From Candidatus Binatia bacterium (GTDB lineage: Bacteria > Desulfobacterota > Binatia > Bin18): DNA of 64,000 nucleotides. Of the stretch, positions 12,683 through 62,101 are shown piece after piece. A program made the translations under genes and the position numbers. The notes beneath the pieces were generated by a model. That model was not told where the DNA came from. It ran no database searches and saw only the letters and a program-made list of their open reading frames with translations. The stretch lies in the NCBI GenBank assembly GCA_963667495.1, contig OY763426.1, positions 1,923,615 through 1,987,614 of the forward strand, read 5' to 3'. Position 1 is the first letter of the stretch. The number at the start of each line of letters is the position of its first letter.

Positions 12683-12784
12683 ACCCACCCCGGCCCTTTG
12701 GGCCACCCCTCCCAAGAGGGGATAAAAAGCTCCCCTCCTTGGAGGGGTGCCGCGTCAGCGGCGGGGTGGGTTCCTCACCTCGCC
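12681..12784. repeat. palindromic GC-rich repeat element (family R), full copy starting at the stop codon of the upstream gene
   Basis: GAACCCACCCCGGCC...CCACCCCTCC-NNGG-AGGGGAT...ATCCCCTCCTTGGAGGGGTG..GGCGGGGTGGGTTCC, a nested inverted repeat. Confidence 0.85.
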
Positions 12785-42658: not shown

Positions 42659-43390
42659 ATGAAGACCTTCTCTTCTCTTCTCTTCTCTTCTCTTCTCTTC
42701 TCTTCTCTGAGCGCGTGTAGCAGCGTATCAGTCGGAAGAGGAGTGTTGGACCCGGCCCAACAGCAGATGTTGGACCGCGGCCTGGAAGTGTCGTCCGTGG
42801 CCGTAAAAACCGGCCAGCCCGTTGCGGCCGGGCGGATGTACGAACGCCTGTCCACCTCCTTCCCGAGCGCCCCGGAACCGAAACTCGGACTGGCCTATAT
42901 GGCCCTGCACGCCGGTGACTTTGCGACCGCCGACGCCCTGTTCACCGAAGCCAGCAGCCTGGCAACGTTGCCGGCCCTCAAGGCCGAGGCCCTGCTCGGC
43001 GCCGGGCGGGCCAGTCTGGGACGCGAAGACCTCGCCACGGCCAGGACCCATTTTCTTGCCGCCGCCGAACTGGCCACCGGCACCTCGGTCGCGCCCTGGG
43101 TCATGAACGGTCTGGCGGTCGTGGCCGCGCTTGAGGGCGATTATCCCTTGGCCGAACAGCATTACAAAGCAGCGCTGGCCGTGGCGGCGCATCCGCTCAT
43201 CACCGCCAACCTGCTGCGGACGCTCGTCGAATCGGGCCGCCTCGACGCAGCCCGCCAACTCCACGCCAGCCGTGACGACACCTACTGGGCGGAAAGCGAC
43301 CGGGTCGAGTTGCCACAACTGCTCAAAAACAACGACAGAACCCACCCCGGCCCTACGGGCCACCCCTCCGAGGAGGGGAGCAGATTATAA
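42659..43390 (+). CDS. TPR-like lipoprotein, TadD-like candidate
   Basis: Lipobox LSAC. The signal peptide carries FSSLL repeats. TPR-like helical content. The last 17 codons and the stop come from a repeat-family copy (THPGPTGHPSEEGSRL*). Confidence 0.55.
   Translation: MKTFSSLLFSSLLFSSLSACSSVSVGRGVLDPAQQQMLDRGLEVSSVAVKTGQPVAAGRMYERLSTSFPSAPEPKLGLAYMALHAGDFATADALFTEASSLATLPALKAEALLGAGRASLGREDLATARTHFLAAAELATGTSVAPWVMNGLAVVAALEGDYPLAEQHYKAALAVAAHPLITANLLRTLVESGRLDAARQLHASRDDTYWAESDRVELPQLLKNNDRTHPGPTGHPSEEGSRL
42668..42710 (+). repeat. pentanucleotide (TTCTC/CTTCT)n simple-sequence tract inside the signal-peptide coding region
   Basis: At least 6 tandem pentamers are visible. The ORF-track translation (FSSLL-FSSLL-FSSL, and REEKR x3 on the opposite strand) implies about 8 units. 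Confidence 0.85.
43338..43385. repeat. half-copy of repeat family R forming the 3' end of the TadD-like gene
   Basis: GAACCCACCCCGGCCCTACGGGCCACCCCTCCGAGGAGGGGAG. Confidence 0.8.
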
Positions 43391-43416: not shown

Positions 43417-44676
43417 GTGAAGATGAATACCAGGCAAAAGACCCCCAAGCCGGACCGGCCGCTCCACCGCTCACTGTGGGCACTCAGCCTCGGTCTGGCG
43501 TTCAGCCTCGGGTTTGCTGAACACGGAGTGACGGCAGAGCCGATCAAGCCGATCCCGGTCATGACCGAGGTGAACGAAGCCAAAGCCGCACTCGGCAGGC
43601 GGCTGTTCCACGACACGAGACTCTCCAAGAACGATACAGTCTCCTGCGCCACCTGCCACGACCTGAGTGCCGGCGGGGATGACGGACAGGTCGTATCCAT
43701 CGGTATTGAGGGCCGGCCCGGGCTGGTGAACGCGCCCACCGTGTTCAACTCCGGTTACAATTTCAAACAGTTCTGGGACGGCCGGGCGCACACCCTCGAA
43801 GAGCAGGTTGACGGCCCGTTACAGAGTCGCATCGAGATGGAAAGCATCTGGCCCGATGTCGTAACCAAACTCTTCCAGGACGAGGACTATCCCCGCCTGT
43901 TCCAGCAGGTGTATCCCAACGACGCTCAGGCGATTTCACGCCAGAACATCAAAGACGCCATCGCCGAGTTCCAGCGTTCCCTCATCACCCCCAACAGTCG
44001 CTTTGACCAGTGGCTCAGGGGCAATGTCGAAGCCCTCAACGAACAGGAGAGAGAAGGCTACGCCTTGTTCAAGCGCTACGGCTGCGTGTCCTGTCATCAG
44101 GGGGCAAATGTGGGCGGCAATATGTTTCAAGTCTTCGGCGTGATTAACGACTATTTCAGAAAGCGGGGCAATATCACCGACGCCGACCTCGGACGCTTCA
44201 ACGTCACCGGGAACGAGGTCGACAAACACGCCTTCAAAGTTCCGAGCCTGCGCATGGCCGCGCATACGGCCCCCTATCTGCACGACGGCAGCGCAGCGAC
44301 CTTACGCGACGCGGTCGATGCCATGTTCGAGTTCCAACTCGGACGGGAAGCGCCGGATGAGGACAAGGAGGCCATCGTGGCCTTCATCAAGACTCTGGCC
44401 GGAGAATTCCAAGAAAATAATGACGGCTTTGACTTCAGGCAGGGTCCGACCTCTGCTGAGTTCCGGGAAAGCCTCAACGGCAACCTTGGGCAGCGTGCGG
44501 CACCGACCGGAGTCCAGGAAATCTCTACGACAGGTGCCGCTCAGGAGAGTCCTCCTGCGGACATCGCCGAAACAATTTCCCAAAACGGCTCAGCCCGCCC
44601 GCTGCGCACGGGCCGAACCGCCAGAACAAAATCCAAAGTAGGACGGGCAACGGGCCCGGTCCGTTCGGGACGATAA
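43417..44676 (+). CDS. di-haem cytochrome c peroxidase (CCP/MauG family), secreted
   Basis: Two CxxCH haem motifs (CATCH, CVSCH) and a signal peptide. Low-complexity C-terminal tail. Confidence 0.85.
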   Translation: MKMNTRQKTPKPDRPLHRSLWALSLGLAFSLGFAEHGVTAEPIKPIPVMTEVNEAKAALGRRLFHDTRLSKNDTVSCATCHDLSAGGDDGQVVSIGIEGRPGLVNAPTVFNSGYNFKQFWDGRAHTLEEQVDGPLQSRIEMESIWPDVVTKLFQDEDYPRLFQQVYPNDAQAISRQNIKDAIAEFQRSLITPNSRFDQWLRGNVEALNEQEREGYALFKRYGCVSCHQGANVGGNMFQVFGVINDYFRKRGNITDADLGRFNVTGNEVDKHAFKVPSLRMAAHTAPYLHDGSAATLRDAVDAMFEFQLGREAPDEDKEAIVAFIKTLAGEFQENNDGFDFRQGPTSAEFRESLNGNLGQRAAPTGVQEISTTGAAQESPPADIAETISQNGSARPLRTGRTARTKSKVGRATGPVRSGR

Positions 44677-44707: not shown

Positions 44708-46510
44708 ATGAAATCCAAATCAATCACTATCGGCATCTTCCTGTCAGTCCTCTTTGTCGTAACCGCCGCCGGATTCTACTGGATGGCCGCGCAGGCCAAA
44801 GCCGGCGAGCATCATCTCGCCATTGCCACCGTACAACGGATTCAGCAAATCGAATCGCAGTGGAGTGTCGAAGTGGCCCGCGTCCGCTCCGACCCCTTTG
44901 CCGACTTCGACACCCTGACCCAATTCATCCCCCGGATGGAGCGCCTCAAGGATACCCTGGCGAGCGCTATCCGAAACACGTCCAGCCTGCCGAGCCGCTT
45001 GGTCAACACCACCAATGCCTACCTGAGCGCCGTTACCGCCAAGGAGGAACGCATTGAGCGCTTCAAGACCGGCTACGCCGTGCTGCGCAATTCCGTGCGC
45101 TATCTGCCCCTGGCCGCCACCAATGTGATGCAGCAGATGCAGACCAATGGGGCCAACCCGGCTTTCATCAAGAATGTGGCGACCGTCACCGACGATATCA
45201 ACACCTATCTGGCGAGCCCGGCCCCCCCGGAAAAGGAGCGCCTGACGCGGGTGCTGTCCGAACTGGGCAACAACATTGCGACCCGCCATCCCCCGCTGGT
45301 CAATACGGCCATGAACTTTGTCGCCCACGGCCAGGTCCTGCTCGAAAAGCAGGGGCCGACCGAAGAGATATTCCAGGAGGCGACCTCCGATCAAATCAGC
45401 GAGCTGGGCGGCACCATCATCAAAGGGTTGGAGGATGAAATAGACCGGACCGAGGCCCTGGCCACCTGGTACGAGCGCGGCATCATCGGCACGGGCATCG
45501 CCCTGTGGCTGATGTGGTTGACCATCGCGGTCAAAGCGCCCAGGGGCAAAGACCAACGGAACAGAGGCAGCACAGCAGTCCTGCCGCAAAATCCGTTACT
45601 GCTGAGAGAACAGGCCGGTCCCAGACCGGACGAAGGACTCGACCGCCTGACTGCGGACCTCATGAAAACCGGACCGATCAACACCGAAGAGAGCGACTCA
45701 ACCGCTGCCGCAGAGTTCACGGCCTACCAGGTCGGGGTGGATATCGCCGCCGAGCATTTGATGACCCTGGTCGAGCGTATCAAAAGCAGCACCTCAATGC
45801 TGGCCGACGTATCGGACCAGCCGGCTCCCAATGGGGTGGAGGGGGCCGACCTGCTGAGCCAGCCGACTGACGATGAGACGGAAAGTGCCGACCTGCCAGC
45901 CCCGCCGGCGGACAATGGCATGGCGTCTGCCGCCGACCCGGCGGACAAGGACTGGGGCATGACGGCCGCGGTCGTCGCCAACATCCACACGCAGACCGAC
46001 GACATCATGGAGTTGGCGAAGCGCCTGCCCGCGCTGGCACCCAAACGCGACGGGGGCTACACTCAGCTTGACCTCAACGACTCCCTCGACGAAATCGCCG
46101 ACACCATCCAGGCCACGAGTCGGTCGCTGGTCGTCAAGGAACTGAACCCCCTCCCGACCATACCGGCCTCGGAACACGAGGTTTCTCTGATGTTCACCAG
46201 TATCATGGAGAACGCCGCGTTAGCGATTCAGGAACGGGGCCAGAAAAAGGGTATCATTCGGGTGGAGACCAAACAGCAGGCCGACCACATTGAGGTCACC
46301 ATCACGGACAATGGAACTGGCATCCGGCCCGAGCGGCACAAGAAGGTTTTCAGCCCGTTCTACACCACCCGAGACGGGGCCTTGGGCATGGGCCTCACCA
46401 CGGCCCAATACCTGGCGGAGAAATACAACGGCGCCATCCGAATGAACTCCATCCCAAACCGCGGCACGGCCATCCAGGTGTCCCTGCCCATCCACACGCA
46501 TGCGCAATAA
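44708..46510 (+). CDS. membrane sensor histidine kinase-like protein (periplasmic sensor domain + HATPase_c)
   Basis: N-terminal TM, a ~240-aa extracytoplasmic domain, a second TM, then a C-terminal GHKL ATPase (N box ENAALA, G1 DNGTGI, G2 GMGL). No clear HisKA H-box recognised. Confidence 0.7.
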   Translation: MKSKSITIGIFLSVLFVVTAAGFYWMAAQAKAGEHHLAIATVQRIQQIESQWSVEVARVRSDPFADFDTLTQFIPRMERLKDTLASAIRNTSSLPSRLVNTTNAYLSAVTAKEERIERFKTGYAVLRNSVRYLPLAATNVMQQMQTNGANPAFIKNVATVTDDINTYLASPAPPEKERLTRVLSELGNNIATRHPPLVNTAMNFVAHGQVLLEKQGPTEEIFQEATSDQISELGGTIIKGLEDEIDRTEALATWYERGIIGTGIALWLMWLTIAVKAPRGKDQRNRGSTAVLPQNPLLLREQAGPRPDEGLDRLTADLMKTGPINTEESDSTAAAEFTAYQVGVDIAAEHLMTLVERIKSSTSMLADVSDQPAPNGVEGADLLSQPTDDETESADLPAPPADNGMASAADPADKDWGMTAAVVANIHTQTDDIMELAKRLPALAPKRDGGYTQLDLNDSLDEIADTIQATSRSLVVKELNPLPTIPASEHEVSLMFTSIMENAALAIQERGQKKGIIRVETKQQADHIEVTITDNGTGIRPERHKKVFSPFYTTRDGALGMGLTTAQYLAEKYNGAIRMNSIPNRGTAIQVSLPIHTHAQ

Positions 46511-47288
46511 GGGAGTCGCACAGGAGGGATCACGTATGTTTCCTATCGATCGGGCCTCAGTTTTGTTGCGTGCTTTTCCCAGGAATCGCCGCTCGCGGTC
46601 CGGGGCCAACCCACCCCGGCCCGTTGGGCCACCCCTCCAAGGAGGGGATTTTTTCCTATCCCCTCCTTGGAGGGGTGCCGCGTCAGCGGCGGGGTGGGTT
46701 CCCCCCGCCCGCCAGACAACACTATCTGCATCACACCTCACCCATTTCACCCGGTTTCTCACCTGCCGGCGCGGCGCCGTGGCCCTGGAGAGCGCCCTTG
46801 CCGTCATCCCCCTCATCATCTGTCTGGTCGGGGTGTTCGAGATAGTCCAGAGCGTCTTTGTCCGCGACCTGATCCAGCGCGCCGCCTACCAGACCGCTTA
46901 TGAAAATGTGCTCTACGACGGCGCGGCCAGTAACGCCGCTGAGTTGCTCACGCGCTACCGTAATGCGCTCAACGGCGAGGTTGGCGGGCTTCTCAGCTTT
47001 GCCCTGGACGGTGAAGGCGCGTGTAGTGAGACGCCGCCTGCGGGCAGCCCGGCGGTGGACTTCTGCCTGAAGGTCTGCATCACCGCTTACGACAGTCCCT
47101 CCGCTATACCGTCCGATGGAGAGAATTCCTGCGACGACGCCAAGCTCGGTGGCGATGCCGGCGACATAGTGGTGGTCACCGTGGTGGCAACGTCCCAGTC
47201 CGCGCTGAGCGAACTCCAGCAGGGTTTCTTTGGTGACAATGGCATGATGGTCACCGCGGTCAGGCGCAACGAGCTGGAGGCAGCATAG
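46500..47288 (+). CDS. TadE-like pseudopilin family protein; N-terminal leader read through a repeat copy; start uncertain (likely ATG ~46537 after GGAGGG)
   Basis: RRGAVALESALAVIPLIICLVGVFE TadE N-terminal motif immediately after the repeat-encoded ANPPRPVGPPLQGGD...GWVPPARQ. Confidence 0.6.
   Translation: MRNKGVAQEGSRMFPIDRASVLLRAFPRNRRSRSGANPPRPVGPPLQGGDFFLSPPWRGAASAAGWVPPARQTTLSASHLTHFTRFLTCRRGAVALESALAVIPLIICLVGVFEIVQSVFVRDLIQRAAYQTAYENVLYDGAASNAAELLTRYRNALNGEVGGLLSFALDGEGACSETPPAGSPAVDFCLKVCITAYDSPSAIPSDGENSCDDAKLGGDAGDIVVVTVVATSQSALSELQQGFFGDNGMMVTAVRRNELEAA
46607..46702. repeat. full copy of repeat family R inside the 5' part of the TadE-like ORF
   Basis: CAACCCACCCCGGCCCGTTGGGCCACCCCTCCAAGGAGGGGAT..ATCCCCTCCTTGGAGGGGTGCCGCGTCAGCGGCGGGGTGGGTTCC. 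Confidence 0.85.
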
Positions 47289-47289
47289 C

Positions 47290-48135
47290 ATGGCCGGACG
47301 ACGACAAGCCCTTCCCGGAGCGGGTTCCCCCGGGTCGCCGGGGGCGAAACCCACCCCGGCCTCCTTCGACGGGACTCAGGACCGGCTTCGCCAAGCTCAG
47401 GACCACCCCTCCCGAGAGGGGATAAAGGAACCCACCCCGGCCCTTCGGGCCACCCCTCCGAGGAGGGGAGCAGAATATCCCCTCCTCGGAGGGAAAGAGG
47501 AAACGTATCCTCCAACAGACCGGAGATGCTGGACACGTTTCCTCTTTGTGCCGCGTCAGCGGCGGGGTGGGTTCCCCCGGGCGGTAGGGTGGGTTTTCCG
47601 CGCCGCCCGGCAATTCCTGCGCAATACGCGCGGCGCGGCCGCGCTGGAGAGCGCGATTGGGGCCGTTGTCCTCGTCACCACATCAACCCTGGCCTTCGAT
47701 CTGTACACGCGGGCAACCACAACCGCGACCGGCCTGAACGTCGCGGTCACGGTCGCCGACTATGTGAGTCTGGAAAAGGAGCCGAAGGCATCCGAGATGA
47801 CGGCCCTGGCCACATTCCTGCACGGCGAATTCTTCCCCCAGGCCGATGCCGCCTTCGTCGTCACCGCCGTCCAGGGCGCAACCGGTGAGAACCAGAAGTG
47901 GACGTGGAGCAAACAGATTCTCGTCGATGCAGACGCCATCACTGACCCCGACCTGGCCACGTGCAGCCAGGTTGCCGGAGCGGATAACAAAGCAACACTG
48001 CCCACCGCCCTCGCGCTGAAAGCCAACGAAATCGTGGTCGTGGCCGAGGTCTGCGTCAAACACGCGGGCGGGGTATCCTACTATCATCACATCCTGCCCC
48101 CCCGCTCCGAGAATGCGCCAGTCCTTCAGTCCTGA
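47290..48135 (+). CDS. second TadE/TadF-like pseudopilin family protein; 5' region composed of repeat copies; start uncertain
   Basis: ARQFLRNTRGAAALESAIGAVVLVTTSTLAFDLY TadE-like motif after ~100 repeat-derived codons. Confidence 0.55.
   Translation: MAGRRQALPGAGSPGSPGAKPTPASFDGTQDRLRQAQDHPSREGIKEPTPALRATPPRRGAEYPLLGGKEETYPPTDRRCWTRFLFVPRQRRGGFPRAVGWVFRAARQFLRNTRGAAALESAIGAVVLVTTSTLAFDLYTRATTTATGLNVAVTVADYVSLEKEPKASEMTALATFLHGEFFPQADAAFVVTAVQGATGENQKWTWSKQILVDADAITDPDLATCSQVAGADNKATLPTALALKANEIVVVAEVCVKHAGGVSYYHHILPPRSENAPVLQS
47346..47600. repeat. composite repeat block (two R cores plus GAAAGAGGAAACGTATCCTCC..GGACACGTTTCCTCTTTG module)
   Basis: Modules as named, ending CCGCGTCAGCGGCGGGGTGGGTTCC. 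Confidence 0.85.
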
Positions 48136-48144
48136 GATTCTGCC

Positions 48145-49986
48145 ATGACACGATACAACAGCGCGGAAAGCGCAACGCTCCAACCCACCCCGCCGCTAAC
48201 GCGGCACCCCTCCGAGGAGGGGATATTTTCTCTTCCCCTCCTTGGAGGGGTGGCCGAAGGCCGGGGTGGGTTCCCTTTCCTCTCCCCTCTCGGGAGGGGT
48301 GGTCCTGAGCTTGGCGAAGCCTGTCCTGAGCCTCCTTCGACTTCGCTTCACTACGCTCAGGATGAACGGGGTCGAAGGAGGACGGGGTGGGTACTCCCCC
48401 GCTTCCTCCGCTGCCGGCGGGCCGCGGGCACGGCCCTGACCGCGGCCCTGTTCACCCTCATGAGCCTGGCCGGCATCGCCTTTGCCAGCGACCACGTCTG
48501 GCTGGTCTATCAGCGCGACCTGCTCAAGGCCGCCACCGATGCGGCCAGCATTGCCACCACCAAGGCTCTGCACGCGCTCCCCTCCAGCCTGACCAATAAA
48601 AAAGTCAAGAAAAAACTGCTCCCCACTGCCAAGCGCTACATTCTGGCCAACATCCCGGAAGGCTACCGCGACCAGGTAAAAAAGACCTGGGAGGTCTCTA
48701 TCCGTCCCAACCGCAAGGCCGGTACGGTCAGGGTTTTCGCCACCGCCGACCTGGGCGGGGCCATCTTCGGCACGTGGCTGTGGGGTACGGTGGTCAGCGC
48801 GACCAAAGCAAAGAGTAAAACCGAGCGGGTTGAGAGCCTTTCCGAGGTCGTGTTGGCCATCGATATCACCAGCTCAATGCATGGAACTCTGGCTGGAGGG
48901 AAAACCCGCATGCAGGCCGTCAAGACCGCAGCCCTGACCTTGGTCGATGTCCTGACCGAAGGTGCAGGGAAATCCGTCGCCGTCGGCCTCGTGCCCTGGC
49001 ACTTCCAGGTGACACTTGACCCCGCCACACGAACGCGCTGGACAGACAACAACTGGGCCAGGTATCCGACCAAGCAGTATTATCCCAATCCCGGAGGCAA
49101 CGGCCCGGGCGAATGGCAGGACCCCCTGCCATCCCAGCCCGAAGCCTGGAAAGGCTGTGTGGACCAGCGCCAGACCTCCGGCTCGAACCCGCTTGGCCTG
49201 TCCACCGTCTCACCCCGAGTTGCGCCGTTCACCATGGGATTTTACTCTGCTACGGTCCCTGAATCCAACATAGGTAGCAGGATAGCCATCGCTTTCACGT
49301 GCGACCCGAGTAAGGGTAGGGGGGAGGGGCAGGTTTGTTATGCCGGGTGCGCCGAGGATGAGAATAAATGCGGGAAGTCAGAGGCGCTTCCCTACCGCTC
49401 ATGCCTGTCGGAGGATATCTGCTTCGATTTGTCTGGCCGGGTTGAACATCAACGGCCGCAGTGGAACTGCGAGCCTGACTCCTCTCTGTCATTGTCAGCG
49501 TTGCCTCCAATCCAGCCGCTGACAGAAGATACCACCACAATCAAGGATGGCATTACCGCCTTGGAACCAGCCGGGGCTGTCACCTATTCGGCGCTTGGCG
49601 TGCTGTGGGGCCATCGGCTGCTGGCACCGACGTGGCGCGACGCGTGGGGTGACCCGGTGCATCCGGTGGACCCGAGTCAGCATCAGGGCGCACAAAAGGC
49701 GCTGGTGCTGCTGACCGACGGGCAGGACACCTACGCCCGCTATACAAAAGCGACGCTGGAGGAACACCGCCAGACTGCCTGCAAAGCGGCCAAGGACGCC
49801 GGCATCAAGGTCTTTGTCATTGGGGTCGGAGACCTGCCGCGAGCGCAGCTCACCCAGTGTTCGAGCCAGGACCGCGACCCCAGCGGCGAATACCTTTTTC
49901 TGTACCAGAACGCCACCGCCGAAAACCTGCAAGCCGCCTTTGAGTCAATTGGCCGGCAACTCGTCCGGTTTCGGCGGGTGAGTTGA
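48145..49986 (+). CDS. TadG-like Flp-pilus assembly protein with VWA domain; 5' region composed of repeat copies; start uncertain
   Basis: RFLRCRRAAGTALTAALFTLMSLAGIAFA TadG/TadE-type N-terminal anchor, and a VWA MIDAS motif VLAIDITSSM. Confidence 0.65.
   Translation: MTRYNSAESATLQPTPPLTRHPSEEGIFSLPLLGGVAEGRGGFPFLSPLGRGGPELGEACPEPPSTSLHYAQDERGRRRTGWVLPRFLRCRRAAGTALTAALFTLMSLAGIAFASDHVWLVYQRDLLKAATDAASIATTKALHALPSSLTNKKVKKKLLPTAKRYILANIPEGYRDQVKKTWEVSIRPNRKAGTVRVFATADLGGAIFGTWLWGTVVSATKAKSKTERVESLSEVVLAIDITSSMHGTLAGGKTRMQAVKTAALTLVDVLTEGAGKSVAVGLVPWHFQVTLDPATRTRWTDNNWARYPTKQYYPNPGGNGPGEWQDPLPSQPEAWKGCVDQRQTSGSNPLGLSTVSPRVAPFTMGFYSATVPESNIGSRIAIAFTCDPSKGRGEGQVCYAGCAEDENKCGKSEALPYRSCLSEDICFDLSGRVEHQRPQWNCEPDSSLSLSALPPIQPLTEDTTTIKDGITALEPAGAVTYSALGVLWGHRLLAPTWRDAWGDPVHPVDPSQHQGAQKALVLLTDGQDTYARYTKATLEEHRQTACKAAKDAGIKVFVIGVGDLPRAQLTQCSSQDRDPSGEYLFLYQNATAENLQAAFESIGRQLVRFRRVS
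48181..48395. repeat. composite repeat block (R core plus CTGAGC/CTTCGACTTCGC module)
   Basis: CAACCCACCCCGCCGCTAACGCGGCACCCCTCCGAGGAGGGGAT...GGCCGGGGTGGGTTCC...GACGGGGTGGGTACTCC. Confidence 0.85.
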
Positions 49987-50167
49987 GCGGGGGGTATGAG
50001 AGTGGAACGGGTGACGGATATGATGGTGTTTGGCGGCCTGGGGAACCCACCCCGGCGAATGAATTGAGGAGGAAGGAAGCAGACAGCAATTTTACAGTTA
50101 AAAAACAGATATGGCCCACAATCGCGTTCGTTGACAACAACCCCAAACCGCAGGAAAGGAAACAGAT

Positions 50168-50380
50168 ATGCAGACTATCGTTCGTTACGGAAAACAGTTT
50201 ATTCAGTATGTGCGCAAAAACAGTGCCGTTTCGGCGTTGGAGTATGCGATTTTGATAGGGGTTGTTTCTGTGGCTATTGCGGCCGTGCTCTTTAATCTTG
50301 GCCAAAATATCAAAGGGGCGGTAGACGCGGCTAGTGAGAAAGTAACGGCGGCGAGAAAAGCCGCTAAGGTTAATAACTAA
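50168..50380 (+). CDS. Flp-family type IVb pilin
   Basis: 70 aa with a polar leader, then SAVSALEYAILIGVVSVAIAAVLF, an Flp-like xxAxEYxL motif plus a hydrophobic helix. Confidence 0.7.
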   Translation: MQTIVRYGKQFIQYVRKNSAVSALEYAILIGVVSVAIAAVLFNLGQNIKGAVDAASEKVTAARKAAKVNN

Positions 50381-50465
50381 TTAGACTTCATCCCTCCTTG
50401 GTTCCAGGTAAGAGTGGAGTTCCTATACGGACTTCCGCCATTCAGACCACGAGGAAAGCGCACCT

Positions 50466-50657
50466 ATGAAGCACCTCGCACGCCACACCCAAAAGTTCGC
50501 CTGCTACCTGTGCAGCACGCGCGCGGTGTCGGCCCTGGAATACGCCCTGGTGGTCGGCATCTCGGTTGTGGCCGTGGCGGGGGCCTATGAGGCGTTCAGG
50601 GCTGATATCGTGGCGTTGATGACGACCCTTGGGCAGCAGATCGGTGGGGGGAATTGA
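50466..50657 (+). CDS. Flp-family type IVb pilin (paralog)
   Basis: 63 aa, RAVSALEYALVVGISVVAVAGAY. Confidence 0.7.
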   Translation: MKHLARHTQKFACYLCSTRAVSALEYALVVGISVVAVAGAYEAFRADIVALMTTLGQQIGGGN

Positions 50658-50696
50658 GATGGGTGATGCCCAGTGTGTGCTCTGGCCGCTGGGGGC

Positions 50697-50805
50697 AACC
50701 CACCCCGGCCCTGCGGGCCACCCCTCCAAGGAGGGGATTTTCCGCATATCCCCTCCCCTATCCCCTCTCGGGAGGGGTGCCGCGGAGCGGCGGGGTGGGT
50801 TGGCT
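50697..50805. repeat. full copy of repeat family R between flp2 and cpaC
   Basis: GCAACCCACCCCGGCCCTGCGGGCCACCCCTCCAAGGAGGGGAT...CGGCGGGGTGGGTTGG. Confidence 0.85.
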
Positions 50806-50850
50806 CCGTTGTCATTGCCTCACCTGACCCGGCCCGTATAGTATTGCAGT

Positions 50851-53580
50851 GTGTTGGCAACGATGCATTGCGCGTACAGGCGCGTACTGTGGCTGCTGCT
50901 GGTTGGCCTATGGCTGGCCGCCGCCGGCCCGAGCTACGGTCAGGTCCCGAACGGCAACGGGCTGGAGGTGGTGCCGATTGAGACGCGCGCCGGGGCGCAT
51001 GAGGGCTATGGCCGCCTGGTGTTCGACTGGCCGTGGGCCGTGGCCTATGGCGCGCAAATGGAAGGAACGACGCTGACTGTCATGTTCGACCGCCGTCTGC
51101 AGACCACCTTCGGGCAGGTGCCGCGCTATCTGGGGGCGTATATCAGCGATATCGCCTTGGGCTCGGACCGCCAGAGCGTGGTGGCAACCCTGACCGACGA
51201 GTACCGGCTGCGGACGTTTTTGCTCAATAGCGAGGACGGCGGCGTTAAAGTTGTAGTCGATTTGTTGGCCGACGGAGAGGCAGGCTCGATGCTTGCCCAG
51301 GCTCCGACCCCCCTTGCCCCGGAGTCGTCTCCCGAGGCCGTCCCCGGAGATTCCCCCTCCCCCATAATCTCCGGGGACTCCCCCTCTCCCCCCACCCCTG
51401 CGCTGCCCTTTGCCGTTGGACCATCCCCGCTTGGGGAGGGAGAAGGGGAGAACCCACCCCGGCCTACGGCCACCCCTCCAGGGAGGGGATTAGAAGGGGA
51501 AACCTCCGCAACCGAAGTGGCCGGGCCGCCCGAAGTGGACACGATATCCCCTCCTGGGATGGGTGCTGCGGAGCAGCGGGGTGGGTTAGCGGACGTACCG
51601 CCATCCCTTGACCCGAACGAGGAACAGTTAGCAGAACAGAGTGCAGACCAGGCGGTGGCTCCCCCATCGGAAACGGTAACGGAGCCGGCGGGGGCAAACC
51701 CACCCCGGCCCGTTGGGCCACCCCTCCAGGGAGGGGATGAGGAAGAGGCTCGTCTCTCGGGAGGAGCAGAAATATCCCCGTCTGTGAAAACCGACGCGGA
51801 TACACCTCCGGCGGAGCCCGACTCGTCACTCGAATCGGTTCCGACCGCCGAAGCGACGCCTCCGGTTGAGACAACCGCAGCGCCCGAACAAGTTACGGAA
51901 CCCGCACCCGAGGCTGCTCCCCCGGCTGAAACCGCAGCAGCGTCCTCGTCTGTCGCCGCGAACGGGGACCAGACAACCGGACAGAACGCAGACCAAGCGG
52001 TGGCTCCCCCATTGGAAACGGTAACTGAGACGGCGGGGGCAAACCCACCCCGGCCCGTTGGGCCACCCCTCCAGGGAGGGGATGAAGAAGAGGGACCCCC
52101 TGCAATGGTCACCCCTCCCGAGAGGGGATCAGAGGAGGCTCCCCCGGCGGTGAAAGCAGATGCGGACGTGCCTCCGACTGAACCGACACAAGAAACCGTC
52201 TCAGAAGAGACACCTCCGGTCACGACCGACCCGAATCCCGAATCCCCAACCCCCGATCAGGCCGGGCACCCACAGGGGGGTGCCCCTACACCCGATCGGG
52301 CCGGGCACCCACAGGGGGGTGCCCCTACACCCGACCCCAACTCCCAATTCCCTACCCTGCCGGCCTCGGTGCGGATTCCGGTCTCTCAGAGCCGCCTCTT
52401 TCGGCTGGATACGCCGGCGGCGTCGGTCTTTGTGGCCGACCCGGCCATTGCGGATGTACAGCTTGTGTCGTCCGGGGTGCTGTTCGTGGTGGCCAAGGCC
52501 GTGGGCCGCACATCGGTGGCGGTGCTGGATGCCGATAGCGCGCTGATTGGCGAGTGGACCATCAACACGGTCCTGGATATCCAGCCGGTGCGGGCCGCGC
52601 TCGAAGGCGTGCCGGCGCTCGGCAACGTGACGGTCCGTCAACTCAACAGAGGCGTGGAACTCGGCGGCACGGTGGCTTCGATTGCCGAGGCCGACCTGGC
52701 CCTGCGACTGACGACCACCGCTCTGCCGGAAGAGACGCCGGTGGAAAACCGCATTCGCGTGACCGGCAAACAGCAGGTCAACCTGGAAGTGCAGATCGCC
52801 GAAGTGCAGCGTAGCGTCAGCGAAACCCTGGGTTTCAACTGGGAAGTGCTGCCGGAGATTGGCGACGGGCGCGCCCTCGGCATGCGGGTCGGGCGTTTCT
52901 TTTTTGATGAGGCGCTGGGCGGATTCCTGTCGCAGGAATCGGACGACGGGCGGGCCGCGGCCTTGTTCGGCAGCAGCGGTGTTGCCGCCGGCAGAGTCAC
53001 GGTGCGGGGGATGATCGATGCCCTGGCCTCCGCGGGGCTGGCCACGGTGCTGGCGCGGCCCAATGTGACTGCGGTCTCGGGCGAGACGGCCAGCTTTTTT
53101 TCGGGTGGGGAATATCCCCTGCCGTCGGGCTTTGAGGACGGCGCGATTATTTTTGAGTATAAAAAATACGGCGTGCTGCTGGATTTTGTGCCGACGATTA
53201 TTGACAGCGGGCGCATTATGCTGACCGTGCGCCCGGAAGTGTCGCAGCGCTCGGACACGGACTCGCTGACCGTCACCGGGATCGATATTCCGGTCATCAA
53301 TGTGCGCCGGGCCGAGACTACGGTGGAGGTCGGCGACGGCGAGTCGATTGTGATTGCCGGGCTGTACCGCGACCAGAGCGAGGCGATTGAGTCCGGTCTG
53401 CCGGTCGTCAAGGATATTCCGCTGCTGGGCATGTTGTTCGGCTCGCAGTCGGTCCGCTCAAGTGCCACCGAGCTGATTGTGGTGGTCACGGCGCGGCTGA
53501 CCACCGCCACAGTCATGCCCCGCACGACCGACCAGAACCGCCAACTGCCGGGGCGGCGGGTGCGCGGGTATCATTATTGA
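50851..53580 (+). CDS. cpaC: Tad/Flp pilus secretin CpaC/RcpA. The N-terminal ~150-aa domain is possibly AMIN-like, followed by a ~450-aa Pro/Glu/Thr/Ala-rich linker.
   Basis: Signal peptide. Pilus-formation N-domain (RLFRLDTPAASVFVADPAIADVQLVSSGVLFVVAKAVGRTSVAV). C-terminal secretin core (VNLEVQIAEVQRS...GGEYPLP...VVVTARL). Confidence 0.8.
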   Translation: MLATMHCAYRRVLWLLLVGLWLAAAGPSYGQVPNGNGLEVVPIETRAGAHEGYGRLVFDWPWAVAYGAQMEGTTLTVMFDRRLQTTFGQVPRYLGAYISDIALGSDRQSVVATLTDEYRLRTFLLNSEDGGVKVVVDLLADGEAGSMLAQAPTPLAPESSPEAVPGDSPSPIISGDSPSPPTPALPFAVGPSPLGEGEGENPPRPTATPPGRGLEGETSATEVAGPPEVDTISPPGMGAAEQRGGLADVPPSLDPNEEQLAEQSADQAVAPPSETVTEPAGANPPRPVGPPLQGGDEEEARLSGGAEISPSVKTDADTPPAEPDSSLESVPTAEATPPVETTAAPEQVTEPAPEAAPPAETAAASSSVAANGDQTTGQNADQAVAPPLETVTETAGANPPRPVGPPLQGGDEEEGPPAMVTPPERGSEEAPPAVKADADVPPTEPTQETVSEETPPVTTDPNPESPTPDQAGHPQGGAPTPDRAGHPQGGAPTPDPNSQFPTLPASVRIPVSQSRLFRLDTPAASVFVADPAIADVQLVSSGVLFVVAKAVGRTSVAVLDADSALIGEWTINTVLDIQPVRAALEGVPALGNVTVRQLNRGVELGGTVASIAEADLALRLTTTALPEETPVENRIRVTGKQQVNLEVQIAEVQRSVSETLGFNWEVLPEIGDGRALGMRVGRFFFDEALGGFLSQESDDGRAAALFGSSGVAAGRVTVRGMIDALASAGLATVLARPNVTAVSGETASFFSGGEYPLPSGFEDGAIIFEYKKYGVLLDFVPTIIDSGRIMLTVRPEVSQRSDTDSLTVTGIDIPVINVRRAETTVEVGDGESIVIAGLYRDQSEAIESGLPVVKDIPLLGMLFGSQSVRSSATELIVVVTARLTTATVMPRTTDQNRQLPGRRVRGYHY
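51450..52085. repeat. three in-frame R-core copies (51450-51492, 51695-51740, 52040-52085) inside the secretin linker, within a ~117-nt segmental duplication
   Basis: Translated as ENPPRPTATPPGRG and twice as ANPPRPVGPPLQGGDEEE. The flanking QNADQAVAPPLETVTE(T/P)AG context is duplicated. Confidence 0.8.
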
Positions 53581-53597: not shown

Positions 53598-53700
53598 GAA
53601 CCCACCCCGGTCCTTCGCCAGGCTCAGGACCACCCCTCCAAGGAGGGGAGCAGCACACATCCCCTCTTGGGAGGGGTGCCGCGTCAGCGGCGGGGTGGGT
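53598..53700. repeat. repeat family R copy immediately after the cpaC stop
   Basis: GGAACCCACCCCGGTCCTTCGCCAGGCTCAGGACCACCCCTCCAAGGAGGGGAG...GGCGGGGTGGGTATG. Confidence 0.85.
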
Positions 53701-53796
53701 ATGACGGGCGTATCGTCCTCGTCTGCCGTTGCGGATGGGGCAAGAGAAAAGGGGGTGGTTCCTTCCTCGGAAGGGGTTGGCGATTTGGGAAGGTCG

Positions 53797-54020
53797 AACC
53801 CACCCCGGCCCGTTGGGCCACCCCTCCTTGGAGGGGAGCAGCACATCCCCTCTTGGGAGGGAAAGAGGAAACGTATCCTCCAAACAGCCCTCAATGCCGG
53901 ACACGTTTCCTCTTTGTGCCGCGTCAGCGGCGGGGTGGGTTATCCCCGGTCGGACAGTGTATACGGGAACCCACCCCGGTCCTTCGCCAAGCTCAGGACA
54001 GGCTCTCCGAGGAGGGGATG
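53797..54020. repeat. composite repeat block (R cores plus GAAAGAGGAAACGT module)
   Basis: Same modules as the 47.3-kb and 54.8-kb blocks. Confidence 0.85.
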
Positions 54021-54035
54021 AAAAAGGGGAGGCTA

Positions 54036-54400
54036 TGAAACGCAAGATCGTACCGTATAACCCACGCCTGAAAGAACGCGCGCGCTCCCTTCGGCAGCAT
54101 ATGACGCGGGCGGAGGTGCTGTTGTGGCAACAGCTCAGGGCGCGGCAGATGGAGGGCTGTGATTTTGACCGCCAACGCCCGATCGACGAGTATATCGTGG
54201 ACTTTTTCAGCAAAGACCTGATGCTGGCCATTGAGGTTGATGGCGTCACCCACGACAGTGCGACGGGACAGCAACACGACCGGCGGCGACAGCAACGGCT
54301 GGAAGCGCTGGGGGTGCGGTTTTTACGCTTTCAGGATGAAGAGGTCAGGCAGAACCTGGAAGGAGTGTTGACGGTGATTCGGGAGTGGGTCCGGGGAAGG
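54036..54400 (+). CDS. DUF559 (Vsr-like fold) endonuclease-domain protein
   Basis: PYNPRLKERARSLRQHMTRAEVLLWQQLR...DFFSKDLMLAIEVDGVTHD...RRRQQRLEALGVRFLRF matches the DUF559 consensus. ATG after GGGGAGG. Flanked by repeat blocks on both sides. Confidence 0.65.
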
Positions 54401-54494
54401 AACCCACCCCGGTCCTTCGCCAAGCTCAGGACCACCCCTCCAGGGAGGGGATAGAAAAAACTAGGGGTGCTGCGAAGCAGCGGGGTAGGCGGGG
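54399..54494. repeat. repeat family R copy
   Basis: GGAACCCACCCCGGTCCTTCGCCAAGCTCAGGACCACCCCTCCAGGGAGGGGAT. Confidence 0.8.
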
Positions 54495-55056: not shown

Positions 55057-55380
55057 ATGCCCATGCCCACCCCACCCCACCGCTTTCTGCCCGTACTGCT
55101 GGCCGTCGCGCTGACCTGTGCCGGTTGTAGCGTGGTGCCGCTGTCGCTGTACCAGACCCTGCCGTCCACCCGCATGGCGCTGGCCACGCTCGAAGAGACG
55201 CAGCGCAGCCTGGACGACACGCGAGCGGATTATGCGGATAGCCTTGAGGCGGCCCCGGTCGAACGACCGGTCGCGGCCTATGGAGCGACTCATGGCGCGT
55301 ATCAGCGCTGGGTAGCGGACGAGGTGCGTGAGCTGCCGGACGTGTCGCAAACCATCGCTATCGGAGGGGGCGACACCTAG
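55057..55380 (+). CDS. lipoprotein of unknown function in Tad locus (possible CpaD/RcpB-position analog)
   Basis: Lipobox LTCAGC. 107 aa. Confidence 0.4.
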   Translation: MPMPTPPHRFLPVLLAVALTCAGCSVVPLSLYQTLPSTRMALATLEETQRSLDDTRADYADSLEAAPVERPVAAYGATHGAYQRWVADEVRELPDVSQTIAIGGGDT

Positions 55381-59396: not shown

Positions 59397-59489
59397 GTGA
59401 TGGCTTATTTTGGGGAACAATATACTTGACGCACTCAGGAAATAAAAGGGCACAACCTACTTAGGACAGCCAGGAAGGAGTATAGCCCA

Positions 59490-59906
59490 ATGAACAAAGT
59501 TTGGACGATGCTTGCGGCGGTGAGTTTCATGCTGGCAGCGTTTGCTGGCTGCGACGATGCCAAGATAGCGTCCAGGAACTTATCGAAAGCAGCGGAAAAT
59601 TTTGAGATCGACCGGCGTATCATCTTTTACAACGGTATCACTGACACCTACATGCTCACCATATATGGGCGCTGCGCTATTGACGATCAAAGAAAACAAC
59701 TGGAAGTGGTGTGCAAGGTCAGCCAGGATGCCTACAAAAAGCACTTCCTGGGGCTGTCCGACAATGTGACCTATTTCGCGGAACAGTTGGAAACGGCGAA
59801 TGTGAGCGCCTATCACTACCGTGTCACCTTTAAGCCGCAGACGATTTTGCCGGATATCGACTTCCGGGGAAGCGGCACGGAATTACTCGAAAACAAGTCG
59901 GAATAA
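59490..59906 (+). CDS. lipoprotein of unknown function (cargo of AT-rich insertion)
   Basis: Lipobox LAAFAGC. AT-richer composition than its surroundings. Confidence 0.5.
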   Translation: MNKVWTMLAAVSFMLAAFAGCDDAKIASRNLSKAAENFEIDRRIIFYNGITDTYMLTIYGRCAIDDQRKQLEVVCKVSQDAYKKHFLGLSDNVTYFAEQLETANVSAYHYRVTFKPQTILPDIDFRGSGTELLENKSE

Positions 59907-59957
59907 TCAGTTTGAATGGATGTCCTAAGTATGTTGTTCCCTTATTTTGTACCCCCG

Positions 59958-60176
59958 CCCTCTCCCTCCAGGAGACTTGACCTCCCCTCCTTGAAGGGAA
60001 AGAGGAAACGTATCCTCCAACAGGCTGGAGATGCTGGACACGTTTCCTCTTTGTGCCGCGTAGCGGCGGGGTGGGTTTCGTCGTCTCGCTGCACCCCTGC
60101 GCCCGAGCAGCACCCACCCCGGCCCTTCAACGAGGCTCAGGACAGGCTCTTCGGGCCACCCCTCCGAGGAGGGGAT
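59958..60176. repeat. composite repeat block at the left side of the AT-rich insertion
   Basis: GAAAGAGGAAACGTATCCTCC..GGACACGTTTCCTCTTTGTGCCGCGTAGCGGCGGGGTGGGTTTCG...CACCCACCCCGGCCCTTCAACGAGGCTCAGGACAGG..GGGCCACCCCTCCGAGGAGGGGAT. Confidence 0.85.
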
Positions 60177-60357
60177 TATATACAGTGTTACCCACCCTTA
60201 GCATGGATGCAGTGTTCACGCATTCACCGTTTTTACTGCTTTTGACTTCTGAATTTTTGTTGTTCCGTGGACTTGACAGCGTAATATACAGATATATACT
60301 CGGGCCTGACAGGGCAGCATTCTGCTTTCTTGTTCCTTGGAAGGGAGACTCGTATGG

Positions 60358-60521
60358 CAATCCAAAAAAAGGCGAATCATAAGCGCACCCCTGCGTCTAA
60401 TAAGGGTGGGCGTCCTGCTCGGCCTATGCCTGAGTTGATTCCTGATACGCCTGAGAATATCGCCCGTGCTTCGATGATGGGGCCGCCGAAGAAGAAGTGG
60501 CAGTATGAACAATCACAATAA
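60358..60521 (+). CDS. small basic hypothetical protein
   Basis: ATG after GAAGGGAG. Lys/Arg/Pro-rich 54 aa. Confidence 0.3.
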
Positions 60522-60526
60522 CAATC

Positions 60527-60838
60527 ATGCTAGGCTCAGAAGAACTTCTGAAGTGGGGCATTCCATTTTTTGCGGTGATAATTGCTCTTATTGGTACGGT
60601 ATGGAGGATCAGGGTCGATTATCGACGTGAGATACGTGAGGCCGATGAGGCGGCGGAAAAACGCCGAAACGAACGTATGGATGCTATCGAGAACCGACTC
60701 AATGAGCGTCTAAAGGAAATACAGGATGGGCTTCTGGCTTGGAACGAGAAAGTCCATGACCTTGAAATAGATTTGGCTCAAACAATAGGGCGGCTTGAGG
60801 GACGACAAGAGGCCGAAACTCCGAGAACGCCTAGATAG
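60527..60838 (+). CDS. small membrane-anchored coiled-coil hypothetical protein
   Basis: N-terminal TM (IPFFAVIIALIGTVW), then a heptad-rich helix. Confidence 0.4.
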   Translation: MLGSEELLKWGIPFFAVIIALIGTVWRIRVDYRREIREADEAAEKRRNERMDAIENRLNERLKEIQDGLLAWNEKVHDLEIDLAQTIGRLEGRQEAETPRTPR

Positions 60839-61039
60839 GAGTCATGTAGTATGGAACATCGAGAAACTAACCAAAATCTGATAAGCCCTGAAGTTGAACG
60901 GAGCTTCGACCGCATTCAATCTGCCATGTCTCTTTCTGATAAGCGGTTAGGCAGTATTGAGCGTTTAGCGAAAGAACTGGAGTCTCTTGTCGAAGAAAAG
61001 GAAAATACACAAGAACAAGAGTAATTGTACTTGGATAGA

Positions 61040-61067
61040 AAGCCCGGCTGACTGGCCGGGCTTTCTT
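61040..61067 (+). terminator. Rho-independent terminator-like hairpin
   Basis: GCCCGGC-TGACTG-GCCGGGC followed by TTTCTT. Lies after the small-ORF cluster. Confidence 0.6.
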
Positions 61068-61071
61068 GTGC

Positions 61072-61416
61072 CTACTTCCCAACCAAATCCTTGTACCGTA
61101 GCCGCTTATTCATCAGCCCCCGCGCCATGCACTCCATTTGGACAGCCGTATCAAGCGGGCGCTGGTTGTGACGGCCTGCAAACTCGTTGACATACCGGCC
61201 TAAGTGTTTCTCACTCATCTTGTGGTAGGTGCCGTAGTAGCCTCTCTTGGGCATACTCCAGAAGCTCTCAATGCCGTTCGTGTGGGCTTGTCCGTTGACG
61301 TACCCCCAACGCATAGCCGAAATTGTGACGAAGGGTATGGATCGGCTAGAGATGGGAATAAAAGATGATGCAAAATCAGAGATTGTTCGTCTGTCGCAGG
61401 GATTACCATATGTCAC
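61072..61416 (-). pseudogene. C-terminal fragment of an IS1595-family (ISXO2-like) transposase
   Basis: [38 protein letters not shown] matches the conserved C-terminal ISXO2-like transposase domain. No N-terminal part or inverted repeats. Confidence 0.65.
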
Positions 61417-61906
61417 TCATTTACTCGCGCTCTACGCCACCAAGGTGGCAATAAGCAGAAAGAGTATGGAGGTTGAAAGTGAAGACGTAAATAAGGGAAT
61501 GGAAAGAGCCCTCGAACAATGGCAGGAATCAATCAAGACAACATATTATCGCGCAACTAAGAGCCAACAACCAGGGAACATTTTCAAGGAAGTTATCCTA
61601 GCTTGTGCATTTGCCGAAAATGATGAGTTGGGGTATTTCTCTGCCGGAAATGTGCGAGAACCTTTACGTATTATCACCAGTCGAGAATACGATATTCCAA
61701 ACTTTGCGCGGCATCTGAAAGAATTTAGTGGGCAAGAGCGCGGAGGGCTTCTTTATCGAACAGGACAGAAACGCCAGATACGTTATCGTTTCAACAGCCC
61801 ATTGATGCGGCCATATATCGTCATGAAAGGGTTCGCGGATGGTTTGATTACTCAAGAGGTTTTTCACAGACTGCTACCTAATCAGCCAATGCGTATGGTT
61901 CCCTAA
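61247..61906 (+). pseudogene. truncated AAA+/ORC-like ATPase C-terminal fragment, overlapping the transposase remnant
   Basis: Helical lid and winged-helix-like C-terminal region ([16 protein letters not shown]...). No Walker A region. The 5' part overlaps the IS fragment on the opposite strand. Confidence 0.4.
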
Positions 61907-61949
61907 TATATCAAATATGAACTTGGCTTGGGTAAGATTGTATATAATT

Positions 61950-62075
61950 CCCTCTTGGGAGGCCCGTCCTGAGCCCAGCCGAAGGAGGTGCCGCGCCAGC
62001 GGCGGGGTGGGTTTGGCGGGCGGTCGTACCAGGACCCACCCCGGCCCTGCGGGCCACCCCTCCGAGGAGGGGAGA
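61950..62075. repeat. repeat block at the right side of the AT-rich insertion
   Basis: CCCGTCCTGAGCCCAGCCGAAGGAGGTGCCGCGCCAGCGGCGGGGTGGGTTTGG...GACCCACCCCGGCCCTGCGGGCCACCCCTCCGAGGAGGGGAG. Confidence 0.85.
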
Positions 62076-62101
62076 GTAAGAAGTAGAGGAGAACAGCAGT
62101 C

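Follow-up and report, generated by a model that had tools for sequence, protein, structure and literature searches.

How can a pilus operon carry many copies of a palindromic, hairpin-forming repeat inside its genes? The question is raised by a 64,000-nucleotide stretch of a Candidatus Binatia genome (contig OY763426.1, positions 1,923,615 to 1,987,614; hereafter the window), in which a Tad/Flp (type IVc) pilus cluster occupies 42.6–63.1 kb on the + strand. An original prediction, made from the letters of this stretch, held that the repeats are read through in frame in Tad genes, and offered two explanations: domestication of the repeats as disordered peptide segments, or damage to the 5′ ends of the genes, with translation now starting inside or before the repeats. 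Comparison with orthologs supports read-through in frame, both in the linker of the secretin and in the 5′ coding regions of the TadE- and TadG-like genes. On this comparative evidence we consider it likely that the copies are tolerated passengers, filtered for frame rather than adapted as modules, and that translation starts at retained ATG codons upstream of the repeats and reads through them.

Relatives were collected by scanning the C-terminus of the secretin CpaC against one genome per species, which gave 79 loci; at least 17 orthologous loci from sponge 'Binatia' metagenome-assembled genomes (MAGs) were compared, and related loci are denoted below by L numbers. The closest are from 'Candidatus Binatia' MAGs, one 'Candidatus Poriferisocius' and others from sponge metagenome series; comparable MAGs stem from PacBio HiFi sponge genome projects (PMC12648040). 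L001 (OZ246888.1) has ~98% identity to the window in collinear DNA. The secretin core is 78–95% identical in L002–L015, L018 and L041, and ~60% identical in L016–L024. Scans of the JGI metagenome collection gave no TadG relative and no CpaC match closer than 63%, and exact-protein look-ups of Flp1, Flp2 and CpaF returned no record.

Sequence and fold of the repeat element

The basic element is a GC-rich palindrome of 91–93 nt. It is made up of AACCCACCCCG and a short side hairpin, followed by CACCCCTCC-NN-GGAGGGGA, by a loop of 8–12 nt rich in A and T and by an inverted half that ends in CGGGGTGGGTT, with AACCCACCCCG ... CGGGGTGGGTT forming terminal inverted repeats. Its two imperfect palindromes, inverted relative to each other and a short spacer apart, can pair as hairpins, and the single-stranded element is predicted to adopt a three-way junction (fold z-scores −7 to −9). 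It further occurs as half-units, as nested insertions and in arrays together with other hairpin modules. The AACCCACCCC box has 29 exact occurrences in the window against 0.23 expected, 25 of them within the ~20 kb of the Tad locus (43.3–63.2 kb), and the pattern of a half-unit, AACCCACCCCG-N9-16-ACCCCTCC, was found 18 times, with 0 expected.

Among 132 half-units in 16 related loci, the stem of the side hairpin occurs in mutually compensated versions (GGCC/GGCC, GGCCC/GGGCC, GCCGC/GCGGC and GCTGC/GCAGC). Base pairing is therefore a conserved property, and the covariation points to a constraint at the level of DNA or RNA.

The element is present in both orientations, in several frames and also in intergenic DNA, and ~8 of the 17 repeat blocks of the window overlap ortholog-supported open reading frames (ORFs). 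Translated by hand, the 42-nt core is free of stops in all six frames, so copies with a length that is a multiple of three can persist in genes where a disordered Pro/Gly/Arg/Glu-rich peptide is harmless. Extension of the stop-free property to whole repeat blocks was considered and rejected, as these hold 54 stops where composition predicts 94 ± 8 (~57%) and are thus depleted in stops, not devoid of them.

No match to the element was found in Rfam at gathering thresholds (42–64 kb), and a protein search with the repeat-encoded peptide gave no candidates. The flanks of the element have no consistent target-site duplication, and no RAYT or Y1_Tnp domain was found among the scanned ORFs of the 64-kb window; the sole insertion sequence (IS) remnant near the elements is an IS1595 fragment. 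We propose that a non-autonomous palindromic element, resembling REPINs or miniature transposable elements with inverted repeats (MITEs), has probably multiplied in a sponge-associated 'Binatia' lineage and become concentrated in the Tad locus, at sites that would tolerate an added peptide. Far from that locus, a complete element at 12680–12772 abuts a DUF4340 gene (11237–12682), the final base of the TGA of the gene being the first base of the element.

Insertions in the leaders of the TadE- and TadG-like genes

Repeat-derived codons precede the membrane anchors of three genes (34 codons in TadE1, ~88 in TadE2 and ~72 in TadG; a slash marks the cleavage position):

46536–47288, + strand: TadE1, TadE-like pseudopilin gene (Pfam TadE 22.7 bits, marginal to the cut-off of 22.9)
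46608–46700: complete element in the TadE1 leader, 93 nt, two inverted 42-nt half-units and a loop, read as ANPPRPVGPPLQGGDFFLSPPWRGAASAAGWV
47290–48135, + strand: TadE2, TadE/TadF-like gene (motif RG/AAALES and position)
47348–47595: composite repeat array after the TadE2 start codon, ~250–270 nt, with a nested hairpin module among its several modules; shared by the window and L001 only
48145–49986, + strand: TadG-like gene (N-terminal transmembrane anchor; C-terminal VWA domain, E=8.8e-9)
48182–48393: composite repeat block in the TadG leader

None of the three genes offers an in-frame ATG, GTG or TTG in the interval from repeat end to anchor. The original prediction had said as much, and in this it was right; as a correction, conventional starts do exist 5′ of the repeats, at ATG 46536, 47290 and 48145. 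The missing start after the repeat could be taken to mean that the ancestral start was lost, an interpretation that we rejected, the DNA alignments placing ancestral or conserved starts 5′ of the inserts. Since an ancestral or conserved Shine-Dalgarno (SD) sequence and ATG still lie 5′ and in frame, the insertions are inside leader-coding sequence, and selection appears to have held the upstream start in frame with the anchor.

The start of TadE1 is likely ATG 46536, and not 46500; it is preceded by AGGAGG 8 nt upstream and lies 25 nt past the stop of the histidine kinase gene. The resulting leader has 72 codons and ends ...RFLTCRRG/AVALES, and the element within it folds as a three-way junction at −51.6 kcal/mol (z −9.5). 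In repeat-free relatives an SD sequence and ATG stand five codons before RFLxCRRG. That downstream ATG is absent from the window, L001 and L003, which have in common the AGGAGG and ATG that correspond to 46536 in the window; behind this common start the window carries the 93-nt element, L001 a differently oriented insert 3 nt shorter and L003 a half-unit, all in frame. In L009 a different repeat family has inserted independently, likewise in frame. In L007 a copy lies 5′ of an intact SD sequence and ATG, and that copy is thus truly intergenic. Outside the repeat, a hand count on the alignment of the window and L003 gives 14 codon differences in the TadE1 leader, of which 13 are non-synonymous and one synonymous, which argues that the leader sequence is unconstrained and that the frame alone is kept.

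For TadE2, ATG 47290 has GGAGG nine nt upstream and follows the TadE1 stop by 1 nt; it aligns with the ancestral TadE2 start, and in L003 and L015 that start overlaps the stop of TadE1. According to the original prediction, the copies outside the secretin linker would be merely upstream or intergenic if orthologs had conserved conventional starts downstream of the repeats and no peptide covered the repeat-encoded segments. Repeat-free orthologs of TadE1 and TadE2 do have conserved starts, and even so the copies are merely upstream in neither gene: TadE1 of the window lacks the downstream ATG, and in TadE2 the homolog of the ancestral start is kept 5′ of the insert.

The TadG start, ATG 48145, is conserved in L001, L003 and L015 and opens a leader of 86 codons. 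The N-terminus reads MTRYNSAESATLQ... in the group of the window and MQ(T/K)(G/E)THP... in others. Leaders of TadG orthologs range from 18 to 258 nt, all in frame, and at least nine different repeat-bearing leaders (63–258 nt) are all open; the six-codon leader of L016 and L017 is read as ancestral. Within the TadG block, 210 nt made up of repeat modules only (48183–48392) match L001 4420–4211 in inverted orientation, with 98.6% identity and no gaps (blastn). The flanks are collinear and the boundaries fall within 10-nt boxes, AACCCACCCC and GGGGTGGGTA. In both orientations the block is open solely in the register of the ORF, as are 2.8% of composition-matched shuffles.

The leaders of pilins, cytoplasmic and hydrophilic segments of variable length, are cut off by the prepilin peptidase; TadE and TadF are substrates of TadV, and TadG is a membrane-anchored component (PMC10191384). 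TadE1 (...CRRG/AVALES) and TadE2 (...NTRG/AAALES) have features of a class III signal peptide, with Gly at −1, Glu at +5 and then a hydrophobic stretch. The hydrophilic cytoplasmic leaders ahead of the TadE-like and TadG anchors would form one kind of tolerant site. With the G/xxxxE site intact in TadE1 and TadE2, the leader would be removed together with its insert and the mature protein left unchanged; in TadG the insert would stay as a cytoplasmic tail. Translation would initiate at the ancestral or conserved ATGs 5′ of the repeats and continue through them.

Repeat copies in the CpaC linker

The single 909-codon frame of cpaC contains the three element cores that had been predicted, ENPPRPTATPPGRG once (51451) and ANPPRPVGPPLQGGDEEE twice (51697, 52042), together with a reverse half-unit and a partial copy that had been missed:

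50851–53580, + strand: cpaC secretin gene, 909 codons (Pfam secretin and pilus-N domains)
51451–51490 and 51546–51587: split element, forward half (ENPPRPTATPPGRG), 55-nt spacer, reverse half (SPPGMGAAEQRGGLA)
51697–51738, + strand: forward half-unit (ANPPRPVGPPLQGGDEEE)
52042–52083 and 52095–52138, + strand: forward half-unit (ANPPRPVGPPLQGGDEEE), then partial hairpin copy (PPAMVTPPERGSEE)

The linker hence holds three forward half-units, one reverse half-unit and one partial copy. It spans residues ~140–500, is rich in Pro, Glu, Thr and Ala, and is preceded by a signal peptide and a conserved N-domain (residues ~35–140) and followed by the pilus-N and secretin domains (Pfam T2SS-T3SS_pil_N, residues 505–571; Secretin, residues 724–883). 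The N-domain has a weak, sub-threshold AMIN-like match (E=0.005), and its AF2/AlphaFold model has a pLDDT of 44. In 16 genomes signal peptide, N-domain, linker and secretin are in one ORF, with linkers that vary in length and repeat content; L016 and L017 have two N-domains, and the more distant L019–L024 have a plain CpaC of 440–480 residues. No internal signal peptide precedes the pilus-N domain, so export of the core requires the complete ORF. An equivalent Pro/Glu/Ala/Thr linker with zero copies of the element in L041 indicates that the linker is older than the repeats.

Among the linkers of the window, L001, L004 and L003 the copies differ by presence or absence and by nested or split insertions and deletions, in frame; the split element of the window has a short-spacer version in L001 and L004. 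Between the linkers of the window and of the ~98%-identical L001 there are at least four insertions or deletions, all in frame. Forward linker copies are read as NPPRP 20 times, as PTP 8 times (with some false positives) and as THP never, and 11 of 11 reverse copies read ...RGG, although many of these copies are orthologous and the counts are thus not independent. The alignment of orthologs that had been suggested as a check shows the repeats to be in-frame insertions, both into cytoplasmic leaders and into the Pro/Glu-rich secretin linker. This linker, a presumably disordered periplasmic tether between the N-domain and the CpaC core, would be the second kind of tolerant site, which an insert would lengthen.

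Other repeats also occur in these linkers. A 39-nt tandem duplication unrelated to the palindromic element (52244–52334; 2.3 copies, 94% matches) encodes TPDQAGHPQGGAP twice and is single-copy in L001 and L004. Further families are in frame in the cpaC linkers of L003, L008 and L013, in the TadE1 leader of L009 and at 3276–6296 of L004; they encode IGVRASSPQAAKMAALPGSG, SPHPDPLPEGEGEG and, in L004, a FDSAGATLRANE...SVAPEGQSRS module. With at least two further repeat families read in frame, in-frame tolerance is not tied to one element. Different CpaC arrangements are seen more widely: in L025–L033, L036, L040 and L042 (Alphaproteobacteria and other MAGs) a TPR ('TadD-like') domain is fused N-terminally to CpaC through a long linker, whereas in the Binatia clade the TPR protein is a separate upstream gene. 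L037, L038 and L039 have giant CpaC-like ORFs, in which the region equivalent to residues ~510–640 of the query (pilus-N and beyond) is repeated in tandem ~10–20 times before the secretin core.

Repeat-derived C-terminal tails

Two genes of the locus end in repeats, and their extreme C-termini would be the third kind of tolerant site:

42659–43390, + strand: TPR lipoprotein ('TadD-like') gene (Pfam TPR matches)
54035–54454, + strand: DUF559 gene, endonuclease fold (Pfam DUF559, E=5e-31)

The last 17 codons and stop of the TPR gene are supplied by a forward half-unit (43339–43382), giving the tail ...THPGPTGHPSEEGSRL*. The predicted origin of this tail from a half-copy thus stands, with a correction of position: the tail lies at 43339–43390, outside the 46500–53580 interval to which it had been assigned. 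Eleven TPR orthologs end ...KNNDKDKGETQ* or similarly without a repeat, and in L018 a repeat stands at the corresponding point. The DUF559 gene likewise takes its last 17 codons and stop from a half-unit (54401–54451), and two direct half-units bracket the gene; in L001 (12226–12702), L004 (6502–6975) and L014 (11766–12278) the C-terminus enters repeats of differing length. The DUF559 gene, with its Vsr-like endonuclease fold, is patchy among relatives at the same site 3′ of cpaC, and could be a cargo of, or a player in, repeat mobility.

Selection, gene integrity and alternative explanations

Several observations weigh against toleration in frame behind retained starts. The ratio of non-synonymous to synonymous substitution rates (dN/dS) between the window and L001 is 0.05 for cpaE, 0.14 for cpaF, 0.10 for the C-terminal and 0.22 for the N-terminal end of cpaC and 0.42 for TadE2; it reaches 0.88 for TadG and about 1.1, on few substitutions, for TadE1, and in both of these constraint may be relaxed. 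Leaders of 72–105 residues are far above the usual length. A search of all six frames of the window for a prepilin peptidase (A24, GxGDxK-type motif) was negative, although no other part of the Tad locus is missing; the peptidase would be encoded elsewhere. TadE2 and the TadG N-terminus have no Pfam or NCBIfam match and so lack the support of a family model, their names resting on context, on the G-x4-E or transmembrane motif and on the C-terminal VWA domain. Terminator-like hairpins with a T-run lie on the sense strand in the TadE1 leader (46632–46647) and the TadG leader (48207–48222) and could lower expression. Finally, cpaC is interrupted in relatives, at or near repeats in three or four of them: L018 has a stop adjoining a repeat, L014 has several frameshifts, L010 is truncated, and in L145 ~4 kb with an IS1595 transposase sit in the linker directly after a half-unit. 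All 14 database proteins that match the N-domain are also truncated (141–240 residues). These proteins were set aside as evidence of split genes: L144, one of two source contigs inspected, has many split genes, and L145 contains the IS1595-bearing insertion.

Mature TadG, 14% divergent from L001, is stop-free, a state preserved in 0.3% of unconstrained simulations; like the ratios for the two cpaC ends (0.10–0.22) and for TadE2 (0.42), this speaks for living genes. We attribute the high dN/dS of TadG to probable selection, diversifying or relaxed, on an exposed part of the pilus rather than to decay, and this is the main weakness of the argument. Alternatively, the insertions might have destroyed the 5′ ends and the leader copies be untranslated, with TadE1, TadE2 and TadG either dead or started at rare non-canonical codons before the anchor, the upstream ORFs accidental and the secretin linker alone read through. 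Open frames arise easily in repeats with so few stops, dN/dS is near 1 in TadE1 and TadG, TadE2 has a CTG five codons ahead of the cleavage Gly, and the elements contain strong hairpins and terminator-like motifs. We nevertheless think this unlikely. The upstream ATGs are conserved in position, have an SD sequence or stop-start coupling, and remain in frame over at least nine insert contents in TadG and three in TadE1; TadE1 and TadG have no ATG, GTG, TTG or CTG between repeat and anchor; the 210-nt TadG block is open only in the register used, whichever its orientation; and the intact TadG ORF is incompatible with neutral decay. Damaged 5′ ends, as originally proposed, find no support in this window, where TadE2 and TadG retain an ancestral and TadE1 a conserved SD sequence and ATG; damage is seen in some relatives with an interrupted cpaC (L018, L014, L145). 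It is hardly credible that the assembly of repeat-rich MAGs has produced the in-frame status, or the differences from genome to genome, as artefacts: some related database contigs are error-ridden, with the many split genes of L144 as an example, yet over 15 independent assemblies, including many HiFi chromosome-level sponge MAGs, share the architecture with intact ORFs, and assembly errors would be expected to break frames, not to keep them.

Domestication, in which selection would keep the repeat peptides as modules with a function in spacing or interaction (such as setting the length of the secretin linker or regulating through the leader), could account for the biased frame use in the linker and for the acidic runs (DEEE) encoded by the loops of linker copies, where elements elsewhere have a T-rich loop. 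It was the other explanation of the original prediction, and we regard it as very unlikely. Copies vary in number, position and orientation among genomes of 95–99% identity, being present or absent, nested, split or inverted; the otherwise equivalent linkers of L041, L012, L005 and L008 have few or no copies (none in L041); the non-repeat part of the TadE1 leader has diverged almost wholly by non-synonymous change; the frame counts include many orthologous copies; and the stem covariation is a constraint on nucleic acid rather than on peptide. The elements might instead serve chiefly to regulate the operon in cis at the DNA or RNA level (attenuators, mRNA stabilisers or an invertible switch), with translation incidental. 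The two sense-strand terminator-like motifs fit such a role, as do the frequent repeat-bounded rearrangements in the locus and the state of L001, where the inversion has made the TadG motif antisense and the TadE1 motif is missing. However, the motif scans report consensus matches only, 20 against 11.9 ± 3.8 expected; the full element should form a long central hairpin with the T-run inside its loop; a single inversion is seen, between two genomes, and no recombinase or invertase gene was found near the block; and the need for in-frame translation remains whatever the regulatory role. A mainly regulatory function is accordingly doubtful. Still more speculative is the idea that the TadE and TadG leader blocks are invertible or replaceable in-frame modules whose orientation would set whether a terminator-like hairpin with a U-tract is on the sense strand, giving phase-variable read-through of tadG-flp-cpaC and variable piliation in the symbiont population with the ORF intact in both states. 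Tolerated, frame-filtered insertion behind retained starts is the reading that we favour.

Other genes and rearrangements of the locus

Pfam identified the Tad markers Flp_Fap, Secretin with pil_N, and T2SSF twice, with weak CpaE matches; T2SSE was seen in the gene context of the relative L144. The remaining features are:

43417–44676, + strand: cytochrome-c peroxidase gene
44708–46510, + strand: histidine kinase gene
50168–50380 and 50466–50657, + strand: two Flp pilin genes (Pfam Flp_Fap), both repeat-free
50697–50801: complete element, intergenic, in the flp2-cpaC gap
53599–54030: array of elements, intergenic, 3′ of cpaC
55057–55380, + strand: small lipoprotein gene
from 55653, + strand: cpaE, cpaF, tadB, then a 2.7-kb insertion, then tadC

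The region 48383–51772, which covers the TadG body, both Flp genes and the 5′ part of cpaC, has ~84–85% DNA identity to L001 between flanks of ~98%, and Flp1 is 73% identical to its L001 counterpart at the protein level; it looks like a hypervariable or recombined patch over exposed parts of the pilus. The G+C content is 0.61–0.66 on the Tad locus side (44–58 kb) and 0.52–0.61 at 1–42 kb, a difference for which the GC-rich repeats account only in part.

A cassette of ~570 bp encoding a small lipoprotein-like protein (Pfam Phage_VG64, E=1e-53) lies after tadB in the window (59403–59956) and directly after cpaC in L001 (11525–12095), which indicates translocation between repeat-rich sites. The tadB-tadC gap (59400–62100) consists of ~2.7 kb of foreign DNA, flanked by repeats and containing an IS1595-family transposase fragment (61075–61416); ~2 kb of this insert (59956–61987) is missing from L001.

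Comparison with known systems

The window and its relatives document well, for a group other than Rickettsia, how selfish palindromic DNA can live inside genes, and the related genomes form a natural series in which the same sites are empty, filled, nested, inverted or disrupted. They also identify parts of a pilus and secretion machine, the pilin-type leader peptides and the interdomain linker of the secretin, that would tolerate arbitrary peptide insertions. For repeat-rich symbiont MAGs there is a practical warning, as gene callers and homology searches can misplace starts, split genes and invent proteins. Were the TadG inversion dynamic, it would connect REP-like elements with the phase variation of a pilus used for adhesion by a host-associated bacterium.

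No earlier description could be found of this repeat family, of its clustering within one pilus operon or of its preference for leaders and the secretin linker. Structurally, the element resembles the RAYT-mobilised REP/REPIN sequences, in which two imperfect palindromes, inverted and set apart by a short spacer, likewise make up a long hairpin, and which also reach high copy number and occur as singlets, doublets and clusters (PMC3116915, PMC3337134). REPINs are overwhelmingly extragenic (PMC3116915, PMC3337134), whereas about half of the blocks in this locus are in ORFs; the element also lacks the GTAG-type 5′ motif of REPINs, and no RAYT gene was seen in the 64-kb window. With ERIC, BOX, Correia and Anabaena MITEs it shares terminal inverted repeats and the absence of a transposase of its own, and bacterial MITEs too can form occasional in-frame ORF fusions and C-terminal replacements (PMC10969869). 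It differs from other MITEs in having no recognisable target-site duplication and in the unusual density of in-frame copies in one operon (four to six genes). The TadG block recalls intragenic invertons, a coding segment between short inverted repeats (AACCCACCCC / GGGGTGGGTA) being found in both orientations with the ORF intact (bioRxiv 10.1101/2023.03.11.532203 / PMC10028968). Unlike those, its orientations come from two genomes rather than from within one population, and the recoded part is a presumably functionless leader.

The closest parallel is with the Rickettsia palindromic elements (RPEs; Ogata et al. 2000, as summarised in PMC10969869), the first case of selfish DNA to be described inside genes. 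There, as here, a short palindromic element in many copies lies in frame in unrelated genes without destroying them, and also in non-coding DNA. RPEs add peptide at places compatible with protein function, and the sites here may be of that kind too; the element of this study is in frame and stop-free in cpaC, TadE1, TadE2, TadG and the tails of the TPR and DUF559 genes. RPEs are ~100–150 nt long and reside in surface loops of folded enzymes, whereas the Binatia element is ~92 nt, very GC-rich and modular, belongs to an unrelated sequence family and phylum and, as read from sequence, occupies disordered linkers, cleavable or cytoplasmic leaders and C-terminal tails. Judged by these features, the phenomenon appears to be of a known kind, that of RPE-like palindromic repeats carried in frame.

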